Shown here: one piece after another, positions 4,620 to 13,255 of the stretch
Numbering within the stretch: the first letter of the stretch is position 1
How the letters are laid out: every line of letters starts with the position of its first letter
Virus genome (UHGV): UHGV-0128496
Strand: one strand, 5' to 3'
Length of the DNA: 16,551 bases
Origin: a virus
Position numbers and translations under genes: made by a program
Notes under the pieces: generated by a model
Told to the model about the DNA's origin: nothing
Database searches by the model: none
What the model saw: only the letters and a program-made list of their open reading frames with translations

Positions 4620-5155
4620 GCGGCGCATTGGCGCTGCTCCATCAATTCGTTAAAGCGATTGATGAACATGCCGTATGACTGGCCAGGACGAACTGGATTG
4701 ATAATGAATAAATCCGTTGGGACAACTCCCTCGAGGCATGGCCACACGGAACCTTCGTCAACCTCAAAATCGCGGCGTTCGCTGGCGAGCATCACCAGAT
4801 CGGCATATTTCACAGTTGGGTGTTGTTCCGTCGGTAGGCCGAACTTCTGCCGAATGGCTGCATCCACGCGAGCTTCGATCACCTGGTAATCCGGAAGCAG
4901 GTGCTTAAGCGGGGATGGGATGTCCTGCAGGTAGGCTTCAGCAGCATCATGAAGCAGTGCTTCTAATGCAAACTCCTGCGGAACGAGGTGGCTGGTTAAA
5001 ACGCTATGCTGGCCGACGCTATAAAACTCAGGAAGATGCCCTGCAAAACGGCAGATATGAGACAACGCGGTAGCAATATCCTCGATCACGATATCGTCCT
5101 GTTGGATATCGAGGTAATTAAAATGTTTGCCGGATAATGTCTGAATGTAGCTCAT
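4616..5155 (-). CDS. HD-domain phosphohydrolase (YfbR-like 5'-deoxynucleotidase family)
   Basis: H...HD metal-binding signature (QHSVLTSHL ... LLHDAAEAY). I place the start at the ATG at 5155 (MSYIQTL...), preceded by GGAGAAAA; the track ORF begins at a GTG at 5182 with no SD. Confidence 0.7.
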   Translation of the reverse strand: MSYIQTLSGKHFNYLDIQQDDIVIEDIATALSHICRFAGHLPEFYSVGQHSVLTSHLVPQEFALEALLHDAAEAYLQDIPSPLKHLLPDYQVIEARVDAAIRQKFGLPTEQHPTVKYADLVMLASERRDFEVDEGSVWPCLEGVVPTDLFIINPVRPGQSYGMFINRFNELMEQRQCAA

Positions 5156-5262
5156 GGTTTTCTCCATATTGGCGCGCTGCACCGCGCTATTAAATTAATG
5201 AATTGCTAAATTTAGCGTGCAGCAACCCAACCCATGACATGGGTTAATTACGGTCTGGGGTA

Positions 5263-6180
5263 TTAGGCTGCGGGTTTTTGTGGCTGTTCTTCTTTGTACG
5301 AAAGAAGATCACACATCAGGTTTACTACTTTGCTGAATTGGATTAGATCCGTCCCGGCCTGATGGCGCCATTGAAATGCTTTATCATCTTCATCGTTGAA
5401 TGTTTGGGCTTGGGTATTGATGCGCGAAAAATGGAAATTTTCGGTGAGGATGAACGATACACCGCATCCTGCTAGCTCCATTTTATCAGCGGTAAAGCCG
5501 CTATTAAGGCTATCAACTAGCTCGCTTTGAATTGAGTCGTGTTCAGCTGAGTAGCGAATAACTTCATTTTGATCGGCAAGGCGGGACAGCTGGATATAAT
5601 TGCCGACGGTAAACCCTTCAAAAGCATTGGCCACGCCATTGATATAGTTTTTCAACCGCGTAGTTAAACCGTTCTTAATATCGCTAATGTTGATTGTTTC
5701 TGTTTTAACGGAACCGACAACTTTCACCAGCATAGCCACAGCCATACCGGCAATATTTTTATTGGTCGTATTGACCACTAATAGCTTTTCGTTGGTGCTG
5801 TACAACGCAAGGATCAGCGTTGATTTAACAAATGCCCGTTTACACAGGTCAACGCGGACGCTGTCGATAATTGCTAATCGTTCGATACGTTTGATTTTAC
5901 TCCCGGACATATCTTCGATTCTTTGGATCCGTGCTGCGGCTTCCTTCAAAACAACATGCTGGGGAATGATTTTCTGATCATGGCGGATCACGATGGCATA
6001 CCCACCTGATATTGGGGTGACCAATTCGCCAGTGATCGGGTTTGGCACAAAAGAGGCGCGTGAAAACTCAGTTTCACCAATCTCGGAGTAGGGGAGTTCA
6101 AGCAGATGCCCCTCGATAGCTTCAATGCTAGGTAGTGTGGCGCGGTACACGATTGCGTTACGGAACTTAGGTAATTTCAT
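5263..6180 (-). CDS. rdgC: RdgC-like recombination-associated protein
   Basis: 305-aa ORF whose length and sequence pattern (N-terminal FRNAIVYR, central hydrophobic core, C-terminal acidic tail) match my memory of E. coli RdgC (about 303 aa). AGAGGAAAG RBS 5 nt upstream of the ATG at 6180. Confidence 0.65.
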   Translation of the reverse strand: MKLPKFRNAIVYRATLPSIEAIEGHLLELPYSEIGETEFSRASFVPNPITGELVTPISGGYAIVIRHDQKIIPQHVVLKEAAARIQRIEDMSGSKIKRIERLAIIDSVRVDLCKRAFVKSTLILALYSTNEKLLVVNTTNKNIAGMAVAMLVKVVGSVKTETINISDIKNGLTTRLKNYINGVANAFEGFTVGNYIQLSRLADQNEVIRYSAEHDSIQSELVDSLNSGFTADKMELAGCGVSFILTENFHFSRINTQAQTFNDEDDKAFQWRHQAGTDLIQFSKVVNLMCDLLSYKEEQPQKPAA

Positions 6181-6513
6181 TTAACTTTCCTCTGCACAAG
6201 GTTTTAGTCCATACACGAAGTTAAGGCGGCTGCCACCGCCGAACTTTCTCCATACACAACAGAGAAGGGCACCTGCATTAGTCGGCGGCTTGAGAGACCG
6301 CTTTCTTTTTGCCCGGGTGGATTGGGTTATGAGCCCGTCGCCCGGTGATGCCCTTTTCTGTTGTGCCCTGAAAAAGGCTGGCGGTTACCGGAAATACACG
6401 GGAAAACACCGGGCCGCCAGAACAGGGAGTTACTTGTTATTGCTTTAGCCTGCTTTTAACCACATCAGGCGCGGTGGTATCTTGGTGTTCTCACACAACC
6501 AAGAGGGATGTTT

Positions 6514-6711
6514 ATGGGCGCTTTTGATAACCAGGAAATTACGTTACCCGCATGCCCTAAGTGCGGCACTAAGACGAAGAAGAAAATCGCTTGGCTCAAG
6601 TCGAACAAAAGTTTCACTTGTCGATGTGGAGCTACTATCAATGTCAACAGCAGCCAGCTTACTTCCGAAATCAGGAAGGTTGAGGACAAGCTGAAGAAGC
6701 TCTTTAAATAG
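6514..6711 (+). CDS. Small Cys4 zinc-ribbon protein (about 65 aa), lysine-rich
   Basis: CPKCG-x15-CRCG zinc-ribbon signature. AGAGGGA RBS about 6 nt before the ATG at 6514; an intrinsic terminator follows the stop. It lies antisense to the 3' half of the minus-strand ORF 6544..6910. Confidence 0.45.
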   Translation: MGAFDNQEITLPACPKCGTKTKKKIAWLKSNKSFTCRCGATINVNSSQLTSEIRKVEDKLKKLFK

Positions 6712-6910
6712 TTTTTTATCGACTGATATTATTTCGTTATCAGAGGTTGGTTTTTCAGCCTCTGATTTTTTAGTCAGGATCATTTTTTCTACACATGTGA
6801 CTACGCATTCCGAACAGATGGCAGGTTCGTCCTTACCACCTTTTGCGACGATCTTTATCGCTCCCAGTTCGGTTGCTCCGCAAAATGAGCATGTGAATAA
6901 ATGATTCATG
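6544..6910 (-). CDS. ClpX-type C4 zinc-finger domain protein (N-position early gene)
   Basis: N-terminus MNHLFTCSFCGATELGAIKIVAKGGKDEPAICSECVVTCVEKMI aligns by eye with the ClpX N-terminal zinc-binding domain (CSFCG ... IC-x-EC-V-x-x-C). ATG at 6910 with GGTAGAGG RBS. It is the first ORF downstream of the PL-like promoter. The C-terminal about 55 codons are antisense to the plus-strand zinc-ribbon ORF. Confidence 0.45.
6739..6772 (+). terminator. Rho-independent terminator after the zinc-ribbon ORF
   Basis: Stem atcagagg (6739-6746) / cctctgat (6759-6766) with a 12-nt loop, followed by TTTTT(T). It is not a terminator in the minus orientation because no U-tract follows there. Confidence 0.5.
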
Positions 6911-7018
6911 TAAACCTCTACCCCCAACCTAAGTTTTCTGTCAGCGAATCATCCGGTTATTCATATGCCACCGGCGGCTACTTCGTGGGCGTCCTGCCTG
7001 TTCGCTTTCGATGCAATG

Positions 7019-7048
7019 ACTATAGCTACTTTAAGTAGATAATTGCAA
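7019..7048 (-). promoter_or_regulatory. PL-like leftward early promoter with embedded operator
   Basis: On the minus strand: -35 TTGCAA (7043-7048), 18-bp spacer, -10 TATAGT (complement of 7019-7024). The spacer contains the inverted repeat CTACT-TTA-AGTAG (7026-7038), the same motif found in the cI-cro intergenic region. Degenerate AGTAG half-sites lie at 7057-7061 and 7076-7080. Confidence 0.4.
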
Positions 7049-7110
7049 CAACAAAAAGTAGAAAATGAAATTTTTAGTAGTGTAGTGTTATGAGGTGAGG
7101 AATTGGAGGC

Positions 7111-7140
7111 GTAAAAAAAACCGGCTTTCGCCGGTTTCTT
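7111..7140 (-). terminator. Rho-independent terminator ending the cI transcript
   Basis: Stem CCGGC (7121-7125) / GCCGG (7130-7134) with TTTC loop, flanked by A8 on the plus strand. On the minus strand this reads hairpin plus U8, 14 nt past the cI stop. It is much weaker in the plus orientation (TTTCTT). Confidence 0.6.
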
Positions 7141-7153
7141 GATGAATTAATTA

Positions 7154-7873
7154 TTAGCCAAACTCTATCATTTTTAGAGGTAAGCATCTGATTAGCTTGC
7201 CGAATATGTATAGTTCATTCATTTCATGCTCCTCTATGAAGAAGGGCGGGTAATGTTCATTGTCTGAAAGAACTGCCAGTCGGCGCCCTTTTACCTTCTG
7301 CAAACGTTTAACGAACGTACTGTCTTCAAAATTGAACACATAAACGCCGTCGCCGCTGAATTGTTCAACCTTGCTGTCTATGAAAAGCAGGTCCTTTGGG
7401 CAAAGCGTGGGCATCATGCTATCGCCATCAACATTTATCATGACGATGCCATCAAGGCTTCTACGACCAAACAACTCGAAGATCCTCTCTTCTGGAATCT
7501 CTATTGAGCTCACTATTGTAGGGAATGGTTGGTTTATATATCCGGAACCGGCTGAAGCATGAACATCCAATTGCTCTATTCTGACCGTGCCTTTGGCTGG
7601 CGCGTCGCCACCATTAACAGGCACACCATAATCAAGATAAGCCGGTGAGACGGCAAGTCTTTCTGCAATTCGAATCATCTTCTCATCTCTCGGCTTTGCA
7701 GTACCAAGAGTGTAGCGCCGCGCCATCTCATACGAGACACCACTGAACTCTGACAATTCTTTAACTCCAATAGATTGCTCTTGGAGAGACCTGTTTAGCC
7801 TTTCGGCAAAGTCTTTGTATTTAGCATTTTCCACCATAAGTAGAAGATTAAGCGCACAAGGCATAGTTGTCAT
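7154..7873 (-). CDS. cI: CI-like prophage repressor (N-terminal HTH, C-terminal S24 LexA-type peptidase)
   Basis: HTH segment VKELSEFSGVSYEMARRY; S24 self-cleavage signature VDGDSMMPT (Ser) and FVKRL (Lys). Coordinates are the maximal ORF. The in-frame ATG at 7837 (MVENAKYKDF...) is the more likely start: a PRM-like promoter (-35 ATGACA, complement of 7868-7873; 17-bp spacer; -10 TAATCT, complement of 7845-7850) would place the transcript start at that ATG, giving a leaderless mRNA as for lambda cI. Confidence 0.85.
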   Translation of the reverse strand: MTTMPCALNLLLMVENAKYKDFAERLNRSLQEQSIGVKELSEFSGVSYEMARRYTLGTAKPRDEKMIRIAERLAVSPAYLDYGVPVNGGDAPAKGTVRIEQLDVHASAGSGYINQPFPTIVSSIEIPEERIFELFGRRSLDGIVMINVDGDSMMPTLCPKDLLFIDSKVEQFSGDGVYVFNFEDSTFVKRLQKVKGRRLAVLSDNEHYPPFFIEEHEMNELYIFGKLIRCLPLKMIEFG

Positions 7874-7914
7874 TTCTATTTTAAGTTGCTAATAATTGCT
7901 ACTATAAGTAGTAT
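7831..7914. promoter_or_regulatory. Immunity-region operators with divergent PRM/PR promoters
   Basis: Three inverted-repeat sites of type CTACT-N3-AGTAG: perfect CTACT-ATA-AGTAG (7899-7911), degenerate CTATT-TTA-AGTTG (7876-7888) and CCACC-ATA-AGTAG (7831-7843). PR candidate: -35 TTGCTA (7886-7891), 17-bp spacer, -10 TAGTAT (7909-7914), upstream of the cro RBS AGGAGA (7933-7938). The operators overlap the -35 and -10 elements of both promoters. Confidence 0.45.
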
Positions 7915-7942
7915 TGATGCAGGCTTAGTCATAGGAGAACAC

Positions 7943-8200
7943 ATGTCATCTCAACACAAGAATGTAACAGCTAAAGCTGTGAAGGCGATCGGGTCGATTT
8001 CAGAGGTATCAAGGCGGTTTGAATTCCAATCAGTTCAATCTGTTGCGAACTGGATTGCAAAGAACCGAGTACCTTCTGAAAGAGTTATTCAACTCTGCCA
8101 ATGGGGCGGATGGGTAGTAACTCCCCATCAATTACGACCTGATATTTATCCGAACAAAAATGACGGCATACCTTCCGCTAACAACAATAGTCAACTTTAA
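7943..8200 (+). CDS. cro: Cro-like HTH regulator (YdaS-like)
   Basis: First rightward gene, divergent from cI. AGGAGA RBS 5 nt before the ATG at 7943. The segment AIGSISEVSRRFEFQSVQSVANWIAKNRVP is HTH-like. The track ORF begins at an upstream start with no SD. Confidence 0.6.
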   Translation: MSSQHKNVTAKAVKAIGSISEVSRRFEFQSVQSVANWIAKNRVPSERVIQLCQWGGWVVTPHQLRPDIYPNKNDGIPSANNNSQL

Positions 8201-8231
8201 GTTGATTATTAACTACCAGAGGGAAATCAAC

Positions 8232-8795
8232 ATGGTAGACAGCATAAATACAGCAATCCGCCTGATGTGTAAGGCACACAAGCATGGTCGCTTAGGTATG
8301 GCTTCCGATTTAGGGATGACTATCGACCAGTTCCACAACCACCTGTACCAGAAGTGTGGCAGTCGGTTCTTTACCTTGGCAGAACTGGAACGGATGGAGG
8401 ACCTGTCTGGTTCTTGTTACTTGGCCGAGTACCAGGCGAACCGAAAAGGGAAATGGCTGGTGGATGTTCCAACTGCTGAGAGCCTGGATAACGTTGAGCT
8501 GTACAGCATTGAGATGAAAGCGGCAGCAGCATCTGGTGAGCTGGCTAATGCCAAGATGGCAGCAGCGGCTGATGGGGTAATTGATTCATCAGAGCGCAAA
8601 ACGCTTTCAGAATTATTCAGTAAGAAGCTCCGCCACCAGATTCACGGGTTCCTGGGATTTATGGCGCTTTATGGGGTTGGTGTTTCAGATCAGGCGATTG
8701 ACGTATTCGTTTCAACAGGCAGAAAAGGTGACGCCCGCGAGTGTGCAGCTCCGGGCGCCTTGGCGTGTCGTATCAGTGGAGAAACTAACGCATGA
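8232..8795 (+). CDS. cII-position early protein (possibly YdaT-like), function unknown
   Basis: ORF directly after cro with AGAGGGAAA RBS 7 nt before the ATG at 8232. Its position matches ydaS-ydaT of Rac-like prophages, but I cannot confirm sequence similarity from memory. Confidence 0.45.
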   Translation: MVDSINTAIRLMCKAHKHGRLGMASDLGMTIDQFHNHLYQKCGSRFFTLAELERMEDLSGSCYLAEYQANRKGKWLVDVPTAESLDNVELYSIEMKAAAASGELANAKMAAAADGVIDSSERKTLSELFSKKLRHQIHGFLGFMALYGVGVSDQAIDVFVSTGRKGDARECAAPGALACRISGETNA

Positions 8796-9130
8796 ACAGT
8801 GTAAACCGATTCAGACCAGCTAAGCAATTCAGATGTTTGCCGCTGGTGGGTAAAGATGCCCAGTTCGGCTATGTGGAAATCATAAATAACGCGGCTGATG
8901 GAGGCAACTACCAGCCAGCAGACTTGATGGTAGAAGCATTTGTTCAGATGAACGAGAAGGGGCGCGAGGAATGGCTGAAGTTAACCGGCGGTTCAGAGAT
9001 CACTACGGAGTTCCCGTCAGAGTTGTCCGCTGGGAGCCAGATACACAGCGCGTTATATACCTTCGCGAAGGGTACGATCATGAGTGCTTCAGCCCTCTTG
9101 AACAATTCCAGCGTAAATTTACAGAATTAA
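8792..9130 (+). CDS. Hypothetical early protein (112 aa)
   Basis: Its ATG overlaps the upstream stop (ATGA), so it is coupled within the early-right operon. No recognisable motif. Confidence 0.5.
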   Translation: MNSVNRFRPAKQFRCLPLVGKDAQFGYVEIINNAADGGNYQPADLMVEAFVQMNEKGREEWLKLTGGSEITTEFPSELSAGSQIHSALYTFAKGTIMSASALLNNSSVNLQN

Positions 9131-9139
9131 AGGACGACC

Positions 9140-9994
9140 ATGAGCACTAAATTAACCGGTTACGTATGGGATGCATGCGCTTCGTCAGGCATGAAGTTAT
9201 CCAGCGTTGCCATCATGGCGCGTCTGGCAGACTTCAGCAGTGATGAAGGGGTTAGCTGGCCTTCCATCGCTACCATCGCGCGCCAGATTGGTGCTGGTGA
9301 GAGCACGGTTCGTACAGCCATATCTCAGCTGGAAAAAGATGGTTGGTTAACCCGCCAGCAGCGCCGTAAAGGCAACCGAAATGCATCGAACGTTTACCAG
9401 CTCAATGTTGCGAAATTGCAGGCTGCTGCCTTTTCTCACCTGTCAGATTCTGACGCATCAAAATCTGATGCCTCAAAAACAGACGCGTCAAAATCTGAGG
9501 CATCAAAAAACGATGAAAAAGGCGGTTTTCACCCGTCAGAATCTGGGGGGGATCCGTCAGTAAATACAACTACTGATCCATCAGTTAAAAAACCTTCTTG
9601 TCCGGTTGCGCCGCAACCAGACCCTGAAGTGATGATCACCGATAACGCCATCCTGGTTCTGAATCATCTGAACCTGGTTAGTGGCTCACGATACCAAAAA
9701 TCAAAAACTTCTCTGGAAAACATCCGTGCTCGTCTGCGTGAAGGTTACACCGTTAGCGACTTACAGCTGGTGATCGACCTTAAGCATGAGCACTGGAACG
9801 GCAATGACGTGCAGTACCAGTACATGCGTCCTGAAACGCTCTTCGGTCCGAAAAAATTTGAAGGTTATCTGCAAAGCGGGATCCGCTGGGACAAGAAGGG
9901 GCGGCCACCGCGTGACAGCTGGGGTGAAAAGAAACATGACCCGATGAAGTTCGGTCCGGTTGATAGCAAGATTCCAGAGGGGTTCAGAGGATGA
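9140..9994 (+). CDS. Replication initiation protein (lambda-O-like; N-terminal winged HTH, conserved phage C-terminal domain)
   Basis: N-terminus VAIMARLADFSSDEGVSWPSIATIARQIGAGESTVRTAISQLEKDGWL is typical of HTH_36-type initiators. A low-complexity linker (DASKS x4) precedes a conserved C-terminal domain (VLNHLNLVSGSRYQ ... LFGPKKFEGYLQ). The position after the cro/cII module matches a replication gene. Confidence 0.7.
   Translation: MSTKLTGYVWDACASSGMKLSSVAIMARLADFSSDEGVSWPSIATIARQIGAGESTVRTAISQLEKDGWLTRQQRRKGNRNASNVYQLNVAKLQAAAFSHLSDSDASKSDASKTDASKSEASKNDEKGGFHPSESGGDPSVNTTTDPSVKKPSCPVAPQPDPEVMITDNAILVLNHLNLVSGSRYQKSKTSLENIRARLREGYTVSDLQLVIDLKHEHWNGNDVQYQYMRPETLFGPKKFEGYLQSGIRWDKKGRPPRDSWGEKKHDPMKFGPVDSKIPEGFRG
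9452..9511 (+). repeat. Four tandem 15-bp iteron-like repeats inside the initiator gene (putative origin)
   Basis: gacgcatcaaaatct / gatgcctcaaaaaca / gacgcgtcaaaatct / gaggcatcaaaaaac, with partial copies on both sides. Each has a near-palindromic GAYGCRTC core and an A-tract. Lambda ori likewise lies as iterons inside the O gene. Confidence 0.45.
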
Positions 9995-11325
9995 TGGAAA
10001 ATAAATACTGCCGTGCACTGGCTGAACTCCGTTCAAAACCAGCACACGAGTTGAAAGAGGTCGGTGATCAATGGCGCACTCCGGATCTGTTGTTTTGGGG
10101 GATCAATGCGATGTTCGGCCCTCTGGTGTTGGACCTTTTTGCCGACGACAGCAACGCGAAGTGCCCAGCATGGTACACGGCTGAAGATAATGCCCTGACG
10201 CAGGATTGGTCAGAGCGGCTGGCAGAACTCGGTGGTGCCGGGTTTGGCAACCCGCCTTACAGCCGCTCTCAGTACCACGACAAGCAGGCCGTTACCGGAA
10301 TGACCCACATCATTAACCACGCTATGGCCATGCGAGAAAAGGGTGGTCGGTACGTTTTTCTCATTAAGTCTGCGACGAGTGAAACGTGGTGGCCGGAAGA
10401 GGCAGATCACGTCACATTCATCCGTGGCCGAATTGGTTTCGATCTTCCTACATGGTTCGTGCCGAAAGACGAAAAGCAGCAGCCCACCAGCGCATTTTTT
10501 GCTGGCGCTATCGTGGTCTTCGACAAAACATGGCGGGGTGAGCGTTTCAGTTACATCAACCGCACCGACCTGGAGGCCAAAGGCCGTGCTGCGATGTCGC
10601 TGGCCCAATTTGCCGTGGGAAGAACGCAAACTGATGCGGCGCCAGAGCTGGACGCTGAGGTAGTGCCGAAGAAATCAGAGGCAGAACTGCCATTAACCCA
10701 AAAAGCCATTCTGGAAACCAGCGGTGTAGAGGCTTGGGCCTGTGTTGTCGCGGCGTTCGGCGAGAAAGACGAGTACACCTTCAGCGAGTCAAAGTTTGGT
10801 CATACCTGGGCTGCCGACTCTCTGGAAAACCCTGAATTTACCAATGTTTCACCGCTGACGATCGACAGAGCGAAAAAGCTGATCAGCGAGAGCATCCTGG
10901 TGGGTGTTAATGCATGGCTGGAAACATTGCCCTTTGATAGCGATGACGTGAAACAAGACATGTCAGAGCGGTTACGCACGGTTGCCGTTGAGTCTGCGAA
11001 AGAATACGGCATTAACCACAGTGAATTCATCGCGACCATGGAAAGCCTGGATAAAGCCAAATGGTCAAATATTCGGGGGATCCGCGCCCATGTCCGTGAG
11101 ACGCAGGAATCAAAGGACAAGGCGTTAAACGAATCGCGCGTTTGGCCTCTTGAGGTTGGACTGGTGTTTAACCAGATTGAAGGGGCTGACGCTCTACCTG
11201 TTTCGCAGCAGAACAAGCTGAAAGCCAATATCAACCAGCTGTGGCTCGAACGTATGCCGACGAGTGAAATTATCACGACCGCTGGTGGTCTCTTCAACAG
11301 CATGCAGGGGGCCGTCAATGCGTGA
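9991..11325 (+). CDS. Phage Dam-family N6-adenine DNA methyltransferase with about 240-aa C-terminal extension
   Basis: N-terminal about 200 aa carry WRTPD and the catalytic FGNPPYS (NPPY) motif of phage Dam-type N6A MTases. Its ATG overlaps the initiator stop (ATGATG). Residues about 205-444 have no motif I recognise. Confidence 0.8.
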   Translation: MMENKYCRALAELRSKPAHELKEVGDQWRTPDLLFWGINAMFGPLVLDLFADDSNAKCPAWYTAEDNALTQDWSERLAELGGAGFGNPPYSRSQYHDKQAVTGMTHIINHAMAMREKGGRYVFLIKSATSETWWPEEADHVTFIRGRIGFDLPTWFVPKDEKQQPTSAFFAGAIVVFDKTWRGERFSYINRTDLEAKGRAAMSLAQFAVGRTQTDAAPELDAEVVPKKSEAELPLTQKAILETSGVEAWACVVAAFGEKDEYTFSESKFGHTWAADSLENPEFTNVSPLTIDRAKKLISESILVGVNAWLETLPFDSDDVKQDMSERLRTVAVESAKEYGINHSEFIATMESLDKAKWSNIRGIRAHVRETQESKDKALNESRVWPLEVGLVFNQIEGADALPVSQQNKLKANINQLWLERMPTSEIITTAGGLFNSMQGAVNA

Positions 11326-13255
11326 AATTATCGTTGATAACTTTGCTGGTGGCGGCGGCGCGAGTACCGGCATTGAACTGGCGATCGGGCGTAGCGTGGA
11401 TATCGCTATCAACCACGACGAAAACGCTATTGCGATGCATAAGACGAATCACCCTGACACGCTGCATTATTGCGAGTCGGTGTTTGACGTTGACCCAAGC
11501 GCAGCCACCAGCGGTAAACCTGTCGGTCTGGCCTGGTTTAGCCCTGACTGCCGCCACTTTTCCAAGGCGAAGGGCGCTAAGCCGGTTAAGAAAGAGATTC
11601 GCGGGCTGGCGTGGATTGTCCTGCGCTGGGCGCTGGCAGTACGTCCCCGCGTCATGATGCTGGAGAACGTCGAAGAGTTTAAGACATGGGGCCCGCTGCT
11701 GGATGAAGAATTACGCCCGGATCCTGAGCGTGCTGGCGAAACATTCGAGGCATTTGTCGGCATGCTGTCGACGGGGATCGCGGCGAATCACCCTGCGCTG
11801 GCTGAGGTTTGTGAATTCCTTGCCATTGAGCCGCACGGCCAGCAGGCGCAACAGCTGATCGCCGGGCTTGGTTATGAGGTTGATTATCGGGAGCTGCGCG
11901 CATGTGACTACGGCGCGCCGACGATCAGAAAGCGTTTCTTCATGGTCATGCGCTGTGACGGCCGCAAGATTCATTGGCCTGAAGCGACTCATGGGGATCC
12001 AAAATCACTGGAAGTACAAAGCGGCAAGCTGGCGCCATGGCGTACCGCGGCGGAGTGCATTGACTGGAATATCCCGGCCCGGTCCATCTTCGACCGCAAA
12101 AAGCCGCTGGCGGAAAATACGCTCAAACGTATCGCGCGCGGCATCCAGCGCTTTGTTATCGAAAGCGCATCACCTTTCATCGTGAAGTGTAACCACACCA
12201 CGACGAAAGGAGGTTATGACTGTTTCCGCGGGCAATCGTTGTTAGAGCCATTGCAGACCATCACTAAAAAGCATGGCTACGCACTGGCGGTACCGCATCT
12301 TACTAAATTCCGCACCGGGGCCACCGGGCAGCCAGTGACCGAGCCGGTACCAACTGTCACCGCTGGTACGTCGGCGCGCCCGGGCGGGAATGGGCATGCG
12401 CTTGGCGTAGTTGAGGCCGCCCTGACACCGTTCCTGGCTGGCAATGGCGGCAGTGAGTACCAGGCAAAGCCGCGCCCGCTGGATAAACCCGCTCATACAA
12501 TCCTCAAGCAGTCCCGCGCGTGCGTGGTTGCGCCGGTCATCGCCCGCCAGTTTGGAGCCAGTGTTGGGCACAGGGCTGACGAACCGAGTGCGACGATTAC
12601 TGCAGGTGGTGGCGGTAAGTCGCAGCTGGTAACTCCAACACTGATCCAGATGGGGTACGGCGAACGCCCAGGGCAAGAACCGCGTGTTCTTCAACTGAAT
12701 AACCCGCTCGGCACGGTCACTGCTGGTGGTAATAAGTTTGCAACGGTGAGCGCGTTCCTGGCGAAGCACTATGGTGGGAATTACACGGGGCCGGGTGTTG
12801 GTATGGATGAGCCTGCCCACTCAGTCACTACTGTTGATCACCACGCGGTAGTTGCGTCGCACCTGGTGAAGCTGCGCGGAACCTGCCGCGACGGTCAGAC
12901 CATGGATACACCTATGCCGACGATTACCGCTGGTGGCCAGCACGTTGGCGAGGTCCGGACATTCCTCGAAACCTACTGCGGTGATAGCGAGGATGAATGG
13001 CTGGTGACGATCGAGGGGGTTAAGTACCAGATCGTCGATATCGGAATGCGCATGCTGCAACCGCATGAGCTTTATAAGGCGCAGGGCTTCCCTGACGGCT
13101 ACGTTATCGATCAGGACTATCGCGGCAATCGTTACGCCAAAGACAAGCAGGTAGCGCGCTGTGGTAACGCAGTACCGCCGCCGTTCGCTCGTGCGCTGGT
13201 AGAAGCAAATCTTCCTGAATTATGTGCAAATCAAAAGGCGGGTGCAGCCGCCTGA
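11318..13255 (+). CDS. DNA cytosine-5 methyltransferase (large, repeat-containing variable region)
   Basis: Motif I FAGGGGAS, an ENV motif (MLENVEEF) and C-terminal CGNAVPPP; the Cys motif reads SPDCRHFS rather than canonical PCQ. Start taken at the ATG at 11318 (MREIIVDNFAGGGG), overlapping the Dam stop; the track ORF extends upstream in the same frame. The region between the catalytic and C-terminal motifs holds about five P-x-x-T-[VI]-T-A-G-G repeats. Confidence 0.8.
   Translation: MREIIVDNFAGGGGASTGIELAIGRSVDIAINHDENAIAMHKTNHPDTLHYCESVFDVDPSAATSGKPVGLAWFSPDCRHFSKAKGAKPVKKEIRGLAWIVLRWALAVRPRVMMLENVEEFKTWGPLLDEELRPDPERAGETFEAFVGMLSTGIAANHPALAEVCEFLAIEPHGQQAQQLIAGLGYEVDYRELRACDYGAPTIRKRFFMVMRCDGRKIHWPEATHGDPKSLEVQSGKLAPWRTAAECIDWNIPARSIFDRKKPLAENTLKRIARGIQRFVIESASPFIVKCNHTTTKGGYDCFRGQSLLEPLQTITKKHGYALAVPHLTKFRTGATGQPVTEPVPTVTAGTSARPGGNGHALGVVEAALTPFLAGNGGSEYQAKPRPLDKPAHTILKQSRACVVAPVIARQFGASVGHRADEPSATITAGGGGKSQLVTPTLIQMGYGERPGQEPRVLQLNNPLGTVTAGGNKFATVSAFLAKHYGGNYTGPGVGMDEPAHSVTTVDHHAVVASHLVKLRGTCRDGQTMDTPMPTITAGGQHVGEVRTFLETYCGDSEDEWLVTIEGVKYQIVDIGMRMLQPHELYKAQGFPDGYVIDQDYRGNRYAKDKQVARCGNAVPPPFARALVEANLPELCANQKAGAAA

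Follow-up and report, generated by a model that had tools for sequence, protein, structure and literature searches.

An early gene of a lambdoid prophage encodes a free-standing homologue of the ClpX zinc-binding domain and overlaps a conserved antisense gene

Which protein takes the place that lambda gives to its antiterminator N, as the first product of the leftward early operon, in a lambdoid prophage that does not appear to encode N, and what might such a protein do? We addressed this question in a 16,551-nt stretch of the virus genome UHGV-0128496 (the window). The ORF in question lies on the minus strand (6544..6909) and encodes 121 amino acids, with its ATG at 6909-6907, its stop at 6546-6544 and a Shine-Dalgarno sequence, AGAGG, at 6919-6915. 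An earlier reading of the window, made from the sequence only, had reported an ORF of 122 amino acids; the ORF is indeed present, with a length of 121 residues when counted from the ATG at 6909. An alternative TTG start at 6927 would yield 127 residues, and PGAP likewise picks the ATG. In the NCBI annotation by PGAP the product (WP_016240143.1) is named "ClpX C4-type zinc finger protein", and profile searches matched it to PHROG 20296 over residues 1-121 (E 3.2e-68) and to PHROG 5259 over residues 1-56 (E 2.8e-20), both of which are annotated as unknown function.

A 1-kb query around the ORF found 31 E. coli genomes that match most of it, among them that of Nissle 1917, where the gene lies in a lambdoid prophage, downstream of yecN. 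Its 311-bp core is carried by 39 of 5426 complete E. coli genomes, never with less than 99% identity. The work on the "phage repressor pr" of Nissle prophage 3 (PMC5987069) has no bearing on this gene, as the primers published there find no match in the window or in the 17-kb Nissle locus. As an early gene of a lambdoid prophage the ORF is real, and its assignment as a zinc-binding domain (ZBD) is already part of the public annotation. Neither the conserved antisense zinc-ribbon gene nor the modular build of head and tail described below is found there.

The genomic context of the ORF resembles that of an operator-controlled leftward operon. Directly upstream, on the same strand, lies a gene for a CI-type repressor with HTH_3 and Peptidase_S24 domains (7154..7873, 239 aa; Pfam S24 E 3.5e-17), which PGAP calls 'LexA family transcriptional regulator'. 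This gene is followed by a predicted intrinsic terminator on the minus strand (7113..7140), an inverted repeat forming the hairpin AAACCGGC/GCCGGTTT together with a run of 8 T, and it should keep transcription of the repressor gene out of the ZBD gene. Next comes a PL-like sigma-70 promoter on the minus strand (7019..7048), TTGCAA-18-TATAGT, recognized by consensus match only (9 of 12 positions), whose spacer contains a 13-bp palindromic operator, CTACTTTAAGTAG (7026..7038). Related copies of CTACTTTAAGTAG occur at 7876-7888 and 7899-7911, between the repressor gene and the YdaS/cro-like gene, and the seven operator matches in total compare with 0.63 expected, a number reached in none of 200 shuffles. 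The leader of about 100 nt (6910..7012, minus strand), which carries the AGAGG, was searched for boxA without success and shows no stable fold (z-score +1.23). An Rfam scan of positions 5000-9000 returned a single sub-threshold match, to STnc370 on the repressor terminator (28.5 bits vs 54, E 0.72). The ORF is, as the sequence-only reading had it, the first one behind a leftward sigma-70-like promoter (7048-7019) with an operator in it (7026-7038), and we infer that it is expressed only upon derepression or infection, from an insulated promoter-like site. Comparison with IMG/VR loci by blastn further delimits a mosaic cassette (6220..7006, ends approximate), composed of the leader, the ZBD ORF, the convergent small gene and the region upstream of the latter, which recurs at 96-99% identity behind different repressor genes.

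The relationship to ClpX is confined to a head of 45 residues (6775..6909, minus strand), and it emerges from Pfam, profile and structural comparisons alike. The Pfam model zf-C4_ClpX (PF06689), with a curated cut-off of 27 bits, scores residues 1-60 alone above this cut-off (28.4 bits, E 1.5e-6) and the full-length ORF just below it (26.2 bits, E 7.6e-6), and it matches 12 of 13 family members, with a best E of 1.7e-15. When a profile built from the 13 relatives was compared with the PDB, ClpX N-domains alone were matched (E 5e-7 to 1e-6); a single-sequence search against PDB sequences gave weak matches to ClpX (E 0.15-1). For an AF2 model based on the alignment of these relatives (a predicted model, pLDDT 73.9), the four top Foldseek matches in the PDB were all ClpX chains with a probability of 1.00, three of them from ZBD crystal structures (2DS5, 2DS6) and one from a full-length ClpX model, with the remaining matches at 0.13 or less. 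The model superposes on the 2DS5/2DS6 chains with a TM score on the target of 0.72-0.75 and an rmsd of 1.4-1.8 A over 40 columns, at 35% identity. Single-sequence AF2 prediction of all 121 residues reached a pLDDT of 44.7 and left the tail without a usable structural model.

The predicted zinc ligands, arranged as C-x2-C ... C-x2-C, are Cys7, Cys10, Cys32 and Cys35. In the 13-sequence alignment every member has C32 and C35, at least 90% have C7 and 11 of 13 have C10, which is missing from P0032 and P0040, two sequences with degenerate N-termini. F9, within the CSFCG motif, is the retained equivalent of ClpX F16. Between the two Cys pairs there are 21 residues, as compared to 18 in E. coli ClpX, so that the residue-for-residue alignment claimed earlier does not strictly hold, although the homology does. 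The difference lies in the beta-hairpin loop, where three residues are inserted (AKGGKDEP vs AGPSV in ClpX), and judging from this insertion the binding surface may differ from that of ClpX. Over the 45 ZBD codons dN/dS was 0.10-0.27 where it could be computed, dS being saturated, and the head is therefore a selected protein domain. No AAA+ module is present in the 121-aa protein, which reaches 15-21 bits with the NCBIfam models of ClpX, where the cut-offs are 359-371. These results establish the head as a free-standing homologue of the ClpX N-terminal zinc-binding domain, with a similarity beyond chance; the earlier ZBD reading stands for residues 1-45 and does not extend to the rest of the ORF. 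It had also named no characterized phage protein of this type, and our literature search likewise brought up no work on a free ZBD encoded by a phage.

Proteins of this kind form a small, stand-alone family. When 1.84e9 representative proteins were searched exhaustively by HMMER with residues 1-60, 29 matches were retrieved, none of ClpX length: these were proteins of 62-123 aa and proteins in which between two and six ZBD-like units follow each other in tandem. Family proteins span 61-147 aa, most relatives having 61-67 aa. In the enterobacterial prophage group conservation is confined to residues 1-45, which are followed by unrelated tails of 15-100 residues, and the Salmonella ZBD genes lack the tail seen here entirely. 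Small stand-alone proteins resembling the ZBD are also encoded by a Pseudomonas phage and by Bacillus phage G. Among 25 distinct products drawn from 80 IMG/VR viral contigs, 22 have a same-strand ORF of 208-239 aa located 124-342 nt upstream of the ZBD gene, the other three having no such ORF within the limits of the scan. This neighbour is an S24 repressor gene in every locus with Pfam calls, and a repressor gene is also the neighbour in the Salmonella phages 118970_sal3 and F1055. On the other side the ZBD gene is typically followed by a convergent small gene, which in Salmonella belongs to the BssS family.

Examination of the opposite strand revealed a convergent small gene in the window as well (6514..6711, plus strand; Shine-Dalgarno GAGGG at 6503-6507). 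It encodes a basic zinc-ribbon protein of 65 aa, MGAFDNQEITLPACPKCGTKTKKKIAWLKSNKSFTCRCGATINVNSSQLTSEIRKVEDKLKKLFK, with a CPxCG-x18-CxCG arrangement and a C-terminal amphipathic helix ending in KKLFK. The sequence-only reading had overlooked this antisense gene, which lies under the 3' 168 nt of the long ORF. Identical start and stop positions are found in 11 diverged lineages (Escherichia, Kluyvera, Serratia, Shimwellia, Ewingella and metagenomes), with protein identities as low as 63%. Most of these lineages come from metagenome and IMG/VR contigs; a genome_contigs scan contributed two enterobacterial loci with a full-length small gene, and the phage-record collection one record. The gene has been called as a protein once among 5.8e9 database proteins. 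A family search with the small protein gave weak generic zinc-ribbon matches only (Lar_restr_allev 17.8 bits vs a cut-off of 28.6), and the PADLOC defence models matched neither it nor the ZBD protein at E <= 1.

Upstream of the small gene, a block of about 80 nt (6430..6513, plus strand) is kept in 12 of the 12 loci compared and contains a candidate extended -10 element, TGgTATCTT, at 6475-6483 with a weak -35 at 6455-6460. We infer a promoter within this block, where a standard promoter scan raised no flag. Downstream, a predicted unidirectional intrinsic terminator with a 12-bp stem and TTTTT (6739..6771, plus strand) is embedded in the linker codons of the long ORF; at the sixth pair of its stem the window has A-T and the lineage L002 has G-C. 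The small-gene terminator is lineage-specific: in the lineages L005 and L008 a canonical terminator was looked for behind this gene and not found.

The two genes share 168 nt (6544..6711) in an antisense, codon-aligned overlap that pairs residues 66-121 of the long ORF with residues 11-65 of the small one. Within the overlap dN/dS is 0.05-0.26 in the small frame and 0.35-1.8 in the long frame, and variable sites are distributed 20/9/31 over positions 1/2/3 of the small-frame codons. Because of these values, we conclude that the small gene is real and that it is the more strongly constrained of the two frames.

The long frame nevertheless stays open across the overlap in 11 of 11 lineages, with a chance of 0.11-0.26 per independent lineage for an open antisense frame of such length, and in all of them it ends at the same small-gene Leu codon, which is always TTA or CTA. 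What precedes the tail, on the other hand, is exchangeable. At least seven unrelated heads, none with a stop of its own, are fused in frame to the same tail: the ZBD, two AlpA-type HTH versions, a PF27050 domain, a 143-aa coiled-coil family, a 226-aa Shimwellia protein with a remnant of the ZBD helix, and the heads of the lineages L047 and L052. Wherever the context is known, these heads occupy the first-gene position after the repressor.

Selection on the tail was assessed through single-base changes that leave the small-frame product unaltered. Of 97 such possible changes 37 were seen and 60 were not, and those seen were much more conservative in the long frame (mean BLOSUM62 +0.59 vs -1.08; P = 0.001 in a permutation test stratified by transition/transversion, in which the lineages are not independent and codon-preference effects may contribute in part). 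None of the six changes that would create a stop was seen. The mirror test for the small frame gave P = 0.00015. For example, AAG, GAG and CAG are swapped in the small frame while the long frame holds Leu, and the rare codons AGG or CGG are retained where the long frame reads Pro. These results indicate that both frames are under purifying selection, the small gene more strongly. A view of the tail as a mere shadow of the small gene is weakened by this permutation test and by the count of in-frame head swaps. Separately, small-frame dS in the overlap is 0.3-0.4, as compared to more than 1 in the adjacent head; such lower divergence could reflect dual constraint or, equally, a recent exchange of the cassette, and we do not count it as evidence.

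What might a ClpX-type ZBD do without the rest of ClpX? The N-domain of ClpX dimerizes on its own and is needed for the recognition of MuA, FtsZ and adaptors, while it is dispensable for ssrA substrates (PMC5415555). Degradation of lambda O requires the ZBD, whose hydrophobic patch, with F16 and I46 in it, is where lambda O, SspB, RssB and trigger factor bind (PMC7804408). In our preferred reading, to which we assign a probability of roughly 0.4, the phage protein acts as a decoy of the ClpX N-domain or as a poison subunit. It would bind N-domain clients, or pair with the N-domain of ClpX itself, and so transiently block N-domain-dependent recognition by ClpXP just after derepression. Labile early proteins of the phage, or host proteins of the antitoxin type, would then be stabilized, with ssrA-type degradation left unaffected. 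The functional idea of the sequence-only reading, interference with ClpXP recognition or a role as a regulator, is likewise plausible. The isolated ZBD supplied in trans is said, in work by Wojtyra et al. of 2003 and Thibault et al. of 2006, to inhibit the degradation of lambda O and MuA. Several observations count against the decoy. Single-sequence phmmer searches did not reach ClpX, and the identity to the E. coli ClpX ZBD is no more than about 35%; of the two patch residues F16 has its equivalent in F9, but the place of I46 is taken by Lys42, and by A, T, I or V in the relatives; and since unrelated heads (AlpA-type HTH, PF27050, coiled-coil) occupy the same slot in related phages, the slot does not require a ClpX-related activity.

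The main rival, which we rate as somewhat less probable than the decoy, is that the ZBD fold serves as a generic dimeric treble-clef module directed at a target other than ClpX, making the protein an early regulator similar to an anti-sigma factor or an anti-repressor, or a partner of the small protein. The AlpA-type HTH heads found in this slot of related prophages suggest a regulator slot, the family-specific AKGG-x-DE-x-AIC, absent from ClpX, hints at another binding surface, and proteins other than ClpX with one to six tandem ZBD-like units do exist. [quoted passage not shown] However, by far the closest match, in sequence as in the model, is the ClpX ZBD, CsfB (5N7Y) is missing from both the profile matches at E <= 1 and the Foldseek list at E <= 10, and the CSFCG motif is retained together with its F16 equivalent. 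A function in transcription could take still another form, namely an N-type antiterminator in a new guise that acts on a nut-like RNA. Position alone, first after the leftward early promoter, would favour it. The first arginine of the long ORF is residue 103, with none in residues 1-102, so that an arginine-rich motif is missing, the leader offers neither boxA nor structure, no Rfam element was detected, and a Q-type antiterminator is present elsewhere. We therefore reject this reading, which retains next to no probability, in line with the sequence-only reading that had excluded an N-type protein.

The overlap invites two further explanations. That the minus-strand ORF is an artefact of gene calling, with the plus-strand small gene alone being real, would fit the better conservation of the small frame seen in the dN/dS values and codon-position counts given above. 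The overlap, however, does not reach the ZBD part, on which purifying selection acts, a Shine-Dalgarno sequence and promoter are present, the position is conserved in 80 loci, and the tail frame is constrained as well, which makes an artefact very improbable. A subtler possibility, in our judgement improbable as well but less extremely so, is that the second half of the long ORF is selected mainly in cis, at the RNA level: its translation would cover the early transcript, protecting it from Rho or from antisense pairing, and switch off the small gene expressed in the lysogen, the head being an exchangeable accessory. The joining of at least seven unrelated heads to one tail, in 11 lineages that all end at TTA/CTA, agrees with this explanation, as do the chance of only 0.11-0.26 for each open frame and the long-frame dN/dS, which fits weak constraint on the sequence combined with a requirement for an open frame. 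Against it, the small-frame-synonymous changes seen are conservative in the tail and the tail Leu and Pro residues are held, pointing to constraint at the protein level; moreover, the tail is absent from the Salmonella ZBD genes, and about 360 nt of untranslated RNA would still lie between the stop and rdgC.

The decoy reading can be extended to both genes of the cassette. The small gene is probably on in the lysogen, where its transcript of about 280 nt would be complementary to the ZBD message over the 3' half of the latter, so that the two genes would antagonize each other. In its fullest form, which is speculative and which we rate as having a slim chance of being correct in all its parts, the 0.8-kb cassette would be a two-product antisense toggle that makes the zinc-ribbon protein in the lysogen and the ClpX N-domain mimic upon derepression. 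Transcription from PL would then run through the zinc-ribbon gene, whose complementary strand encodes the tail of the mimic. The mimic would block N-domain-dependent recognition by ClpXP, both frames would be selected, and the two products may bind each other.

If the phage protein is indeed a decoy, it would be the first phage factor to copy a substrate-docking domain of a protease in order to disarm that protease, and it would explain how N-less lambdoid phages shield their short-lived early proteins from ClpXP. Whatever its function, the locus provides a clean and statistically supported protein-coding antisense overlap, conserved in prophages of Escherichia, Kluyvera, Serratia, Shimwellia and Ewingella, in which the small gene is almost always missed by automatic annotation. 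Since the prophage resides in the probiotic strain E. coli Nissle 1917, both products are readily testable.

Among known systems, the closest counterpart of the head is the ClpX ZBD itself (PF06689; PDB 1OVX, 2DS5-2DS8), with which it shares the treble-clef C-x2-C ... C-x2-C and the motifs CSFCG and IC-x-EC-V-x-x-C. Unlike ClpX, the phage protein is free-standing, lacks the AAA+ module, is encoded by a phage and is presumably placed under repressor control; it also differs from the ClpX ZBD in the three residues inserted between the zinc knuckles, in the unconserved equivalent of I46 and in the unrelated tail of 60 residues fused to it. CsfB/Gin of Bacillus subtilis (PDB 5N7Y) is likewise a small free-standing treble-clef zinc-finger protein. 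It is an anti-sigma factor that forms a ClpX-N-domain-like dimer essential for its function, and its identity to ClpX is about 20%, its authors doubting that the two are related (PMC5890618). In contrast to the phage protein, CsfB acts in sporulation, and neither our family profile nor Foldseek detected it.

With lambda N, as with P22 gp24 and HK022 Nun, the phage gene has in common its first position in the PL operon and the presumed timing of its expression; it differs in having presumed zinc-binding cysteines and another fold, and no arginine-rich motif or nut/boxA. Phages are known to modulate the AAA+ proteases of their hosts, as T4 PinA and T7 gp4.5 do with Lon, lambda CIII with FtsH and lambda RexB with ClpXP. 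If the decoy reading is right, the protein would join these as an early or immunity-region product that blunts a host protease; to our knowledge, none of the four mimics the protease's own substrate-docking domain. Temperate phages also offer antisense pairs, such as lambda OOP/cII, P22 sar/ant and the convergent promoters of phage 186, which resemble the present locus in having convergent transcription across an early gene beside the immunity region. Unlike in these pairs, the antisense transcript here encodes a conserved protein, and the two strands are dual-coding over 56 codons.

Salmonella prophages carry a ClpX-type zinc-binding domain (ZBD) gene of 61-67 aa, immediately followed by a convergent gene of the BssS family (PF13991). 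This arrangement was found in loci L022-L025 (4267-4518, minus strand in the locus), and also in L084 and its relatives. A convergent small gene directly after the first early gene looks like a conserved architecture, regardless of what that small gene encodes. In one IMG/VR contig (3300045988_109666, represented by both L051 and L066), loss of a single nucleotide close to the LPACP codons disrupts the small zinc-ribbon ORF and simultaneously lengthens the long ZBD-headed ORF to 147 aa. This deletion is either an error of sequencing or a naturally occurring small-gene knockout.

The first gene of the Shimwellia type encodes a product of 226 aa (L011, 3031-3711, minus strand; also L041 and L046). 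What is left of the last ZBD helix persists in this gene as '...ACVETIITIKKSEIEK', which suggests that the head was swapped by recombination within a ZBD-tail gene.

In the window, an inverted repeat, CCAC-x-TCAGGCG-x-CGGTGG (6460-6477), falls within the spacer of the putative promoter of the small gene; it is kept in 12/12 loci and could be the binding site of a regulator. Two additional operator-like palindromes, each with two mismatches, are present, one within the start of the repressor gene (7831-7843) and the other where the cro-like gene ends (8192-8204). Rfam also matches the sRNA STnc370 below threshold (28.5 bits vs 54) over the repressor-gene terminator (7110-7172, minus strand), which probably reflects no more than the terminator hairpin.

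The rightward early region contains two large DNA methyltransferase ORFs back to back (9991-11325 and 11264-13255), one of the N6-adenine type and the other, of 663 aa, of the C5-cytosine type. From these ORFs onward, the copy of this prophage in E. coli Nissle 1917 differs in gene content.

Units resembling the ClpX ZBD also occur outside ClpX. Certain metagenomic proteins (P0020, P0022, P0024, P0025, P0027 and others) contain 2-6 such units in tandem and lack the AAA+ module, with P0020 composed of six near-identical 55-residue repeats in a row. Unrelated phages, too, encode small free-standing ZBD-like proteins, some of them wrongly labelled 'Clp protease'; BFVD matches include a 65-aa protein of Pseudomonas phage PP9W2 (A0A9E7CCK4), gp683 of Bacillus phage G (G3MB63), and A0A8S5U781. 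The stand-alone phage ZBD may represent a wider, so far unstudied, class.
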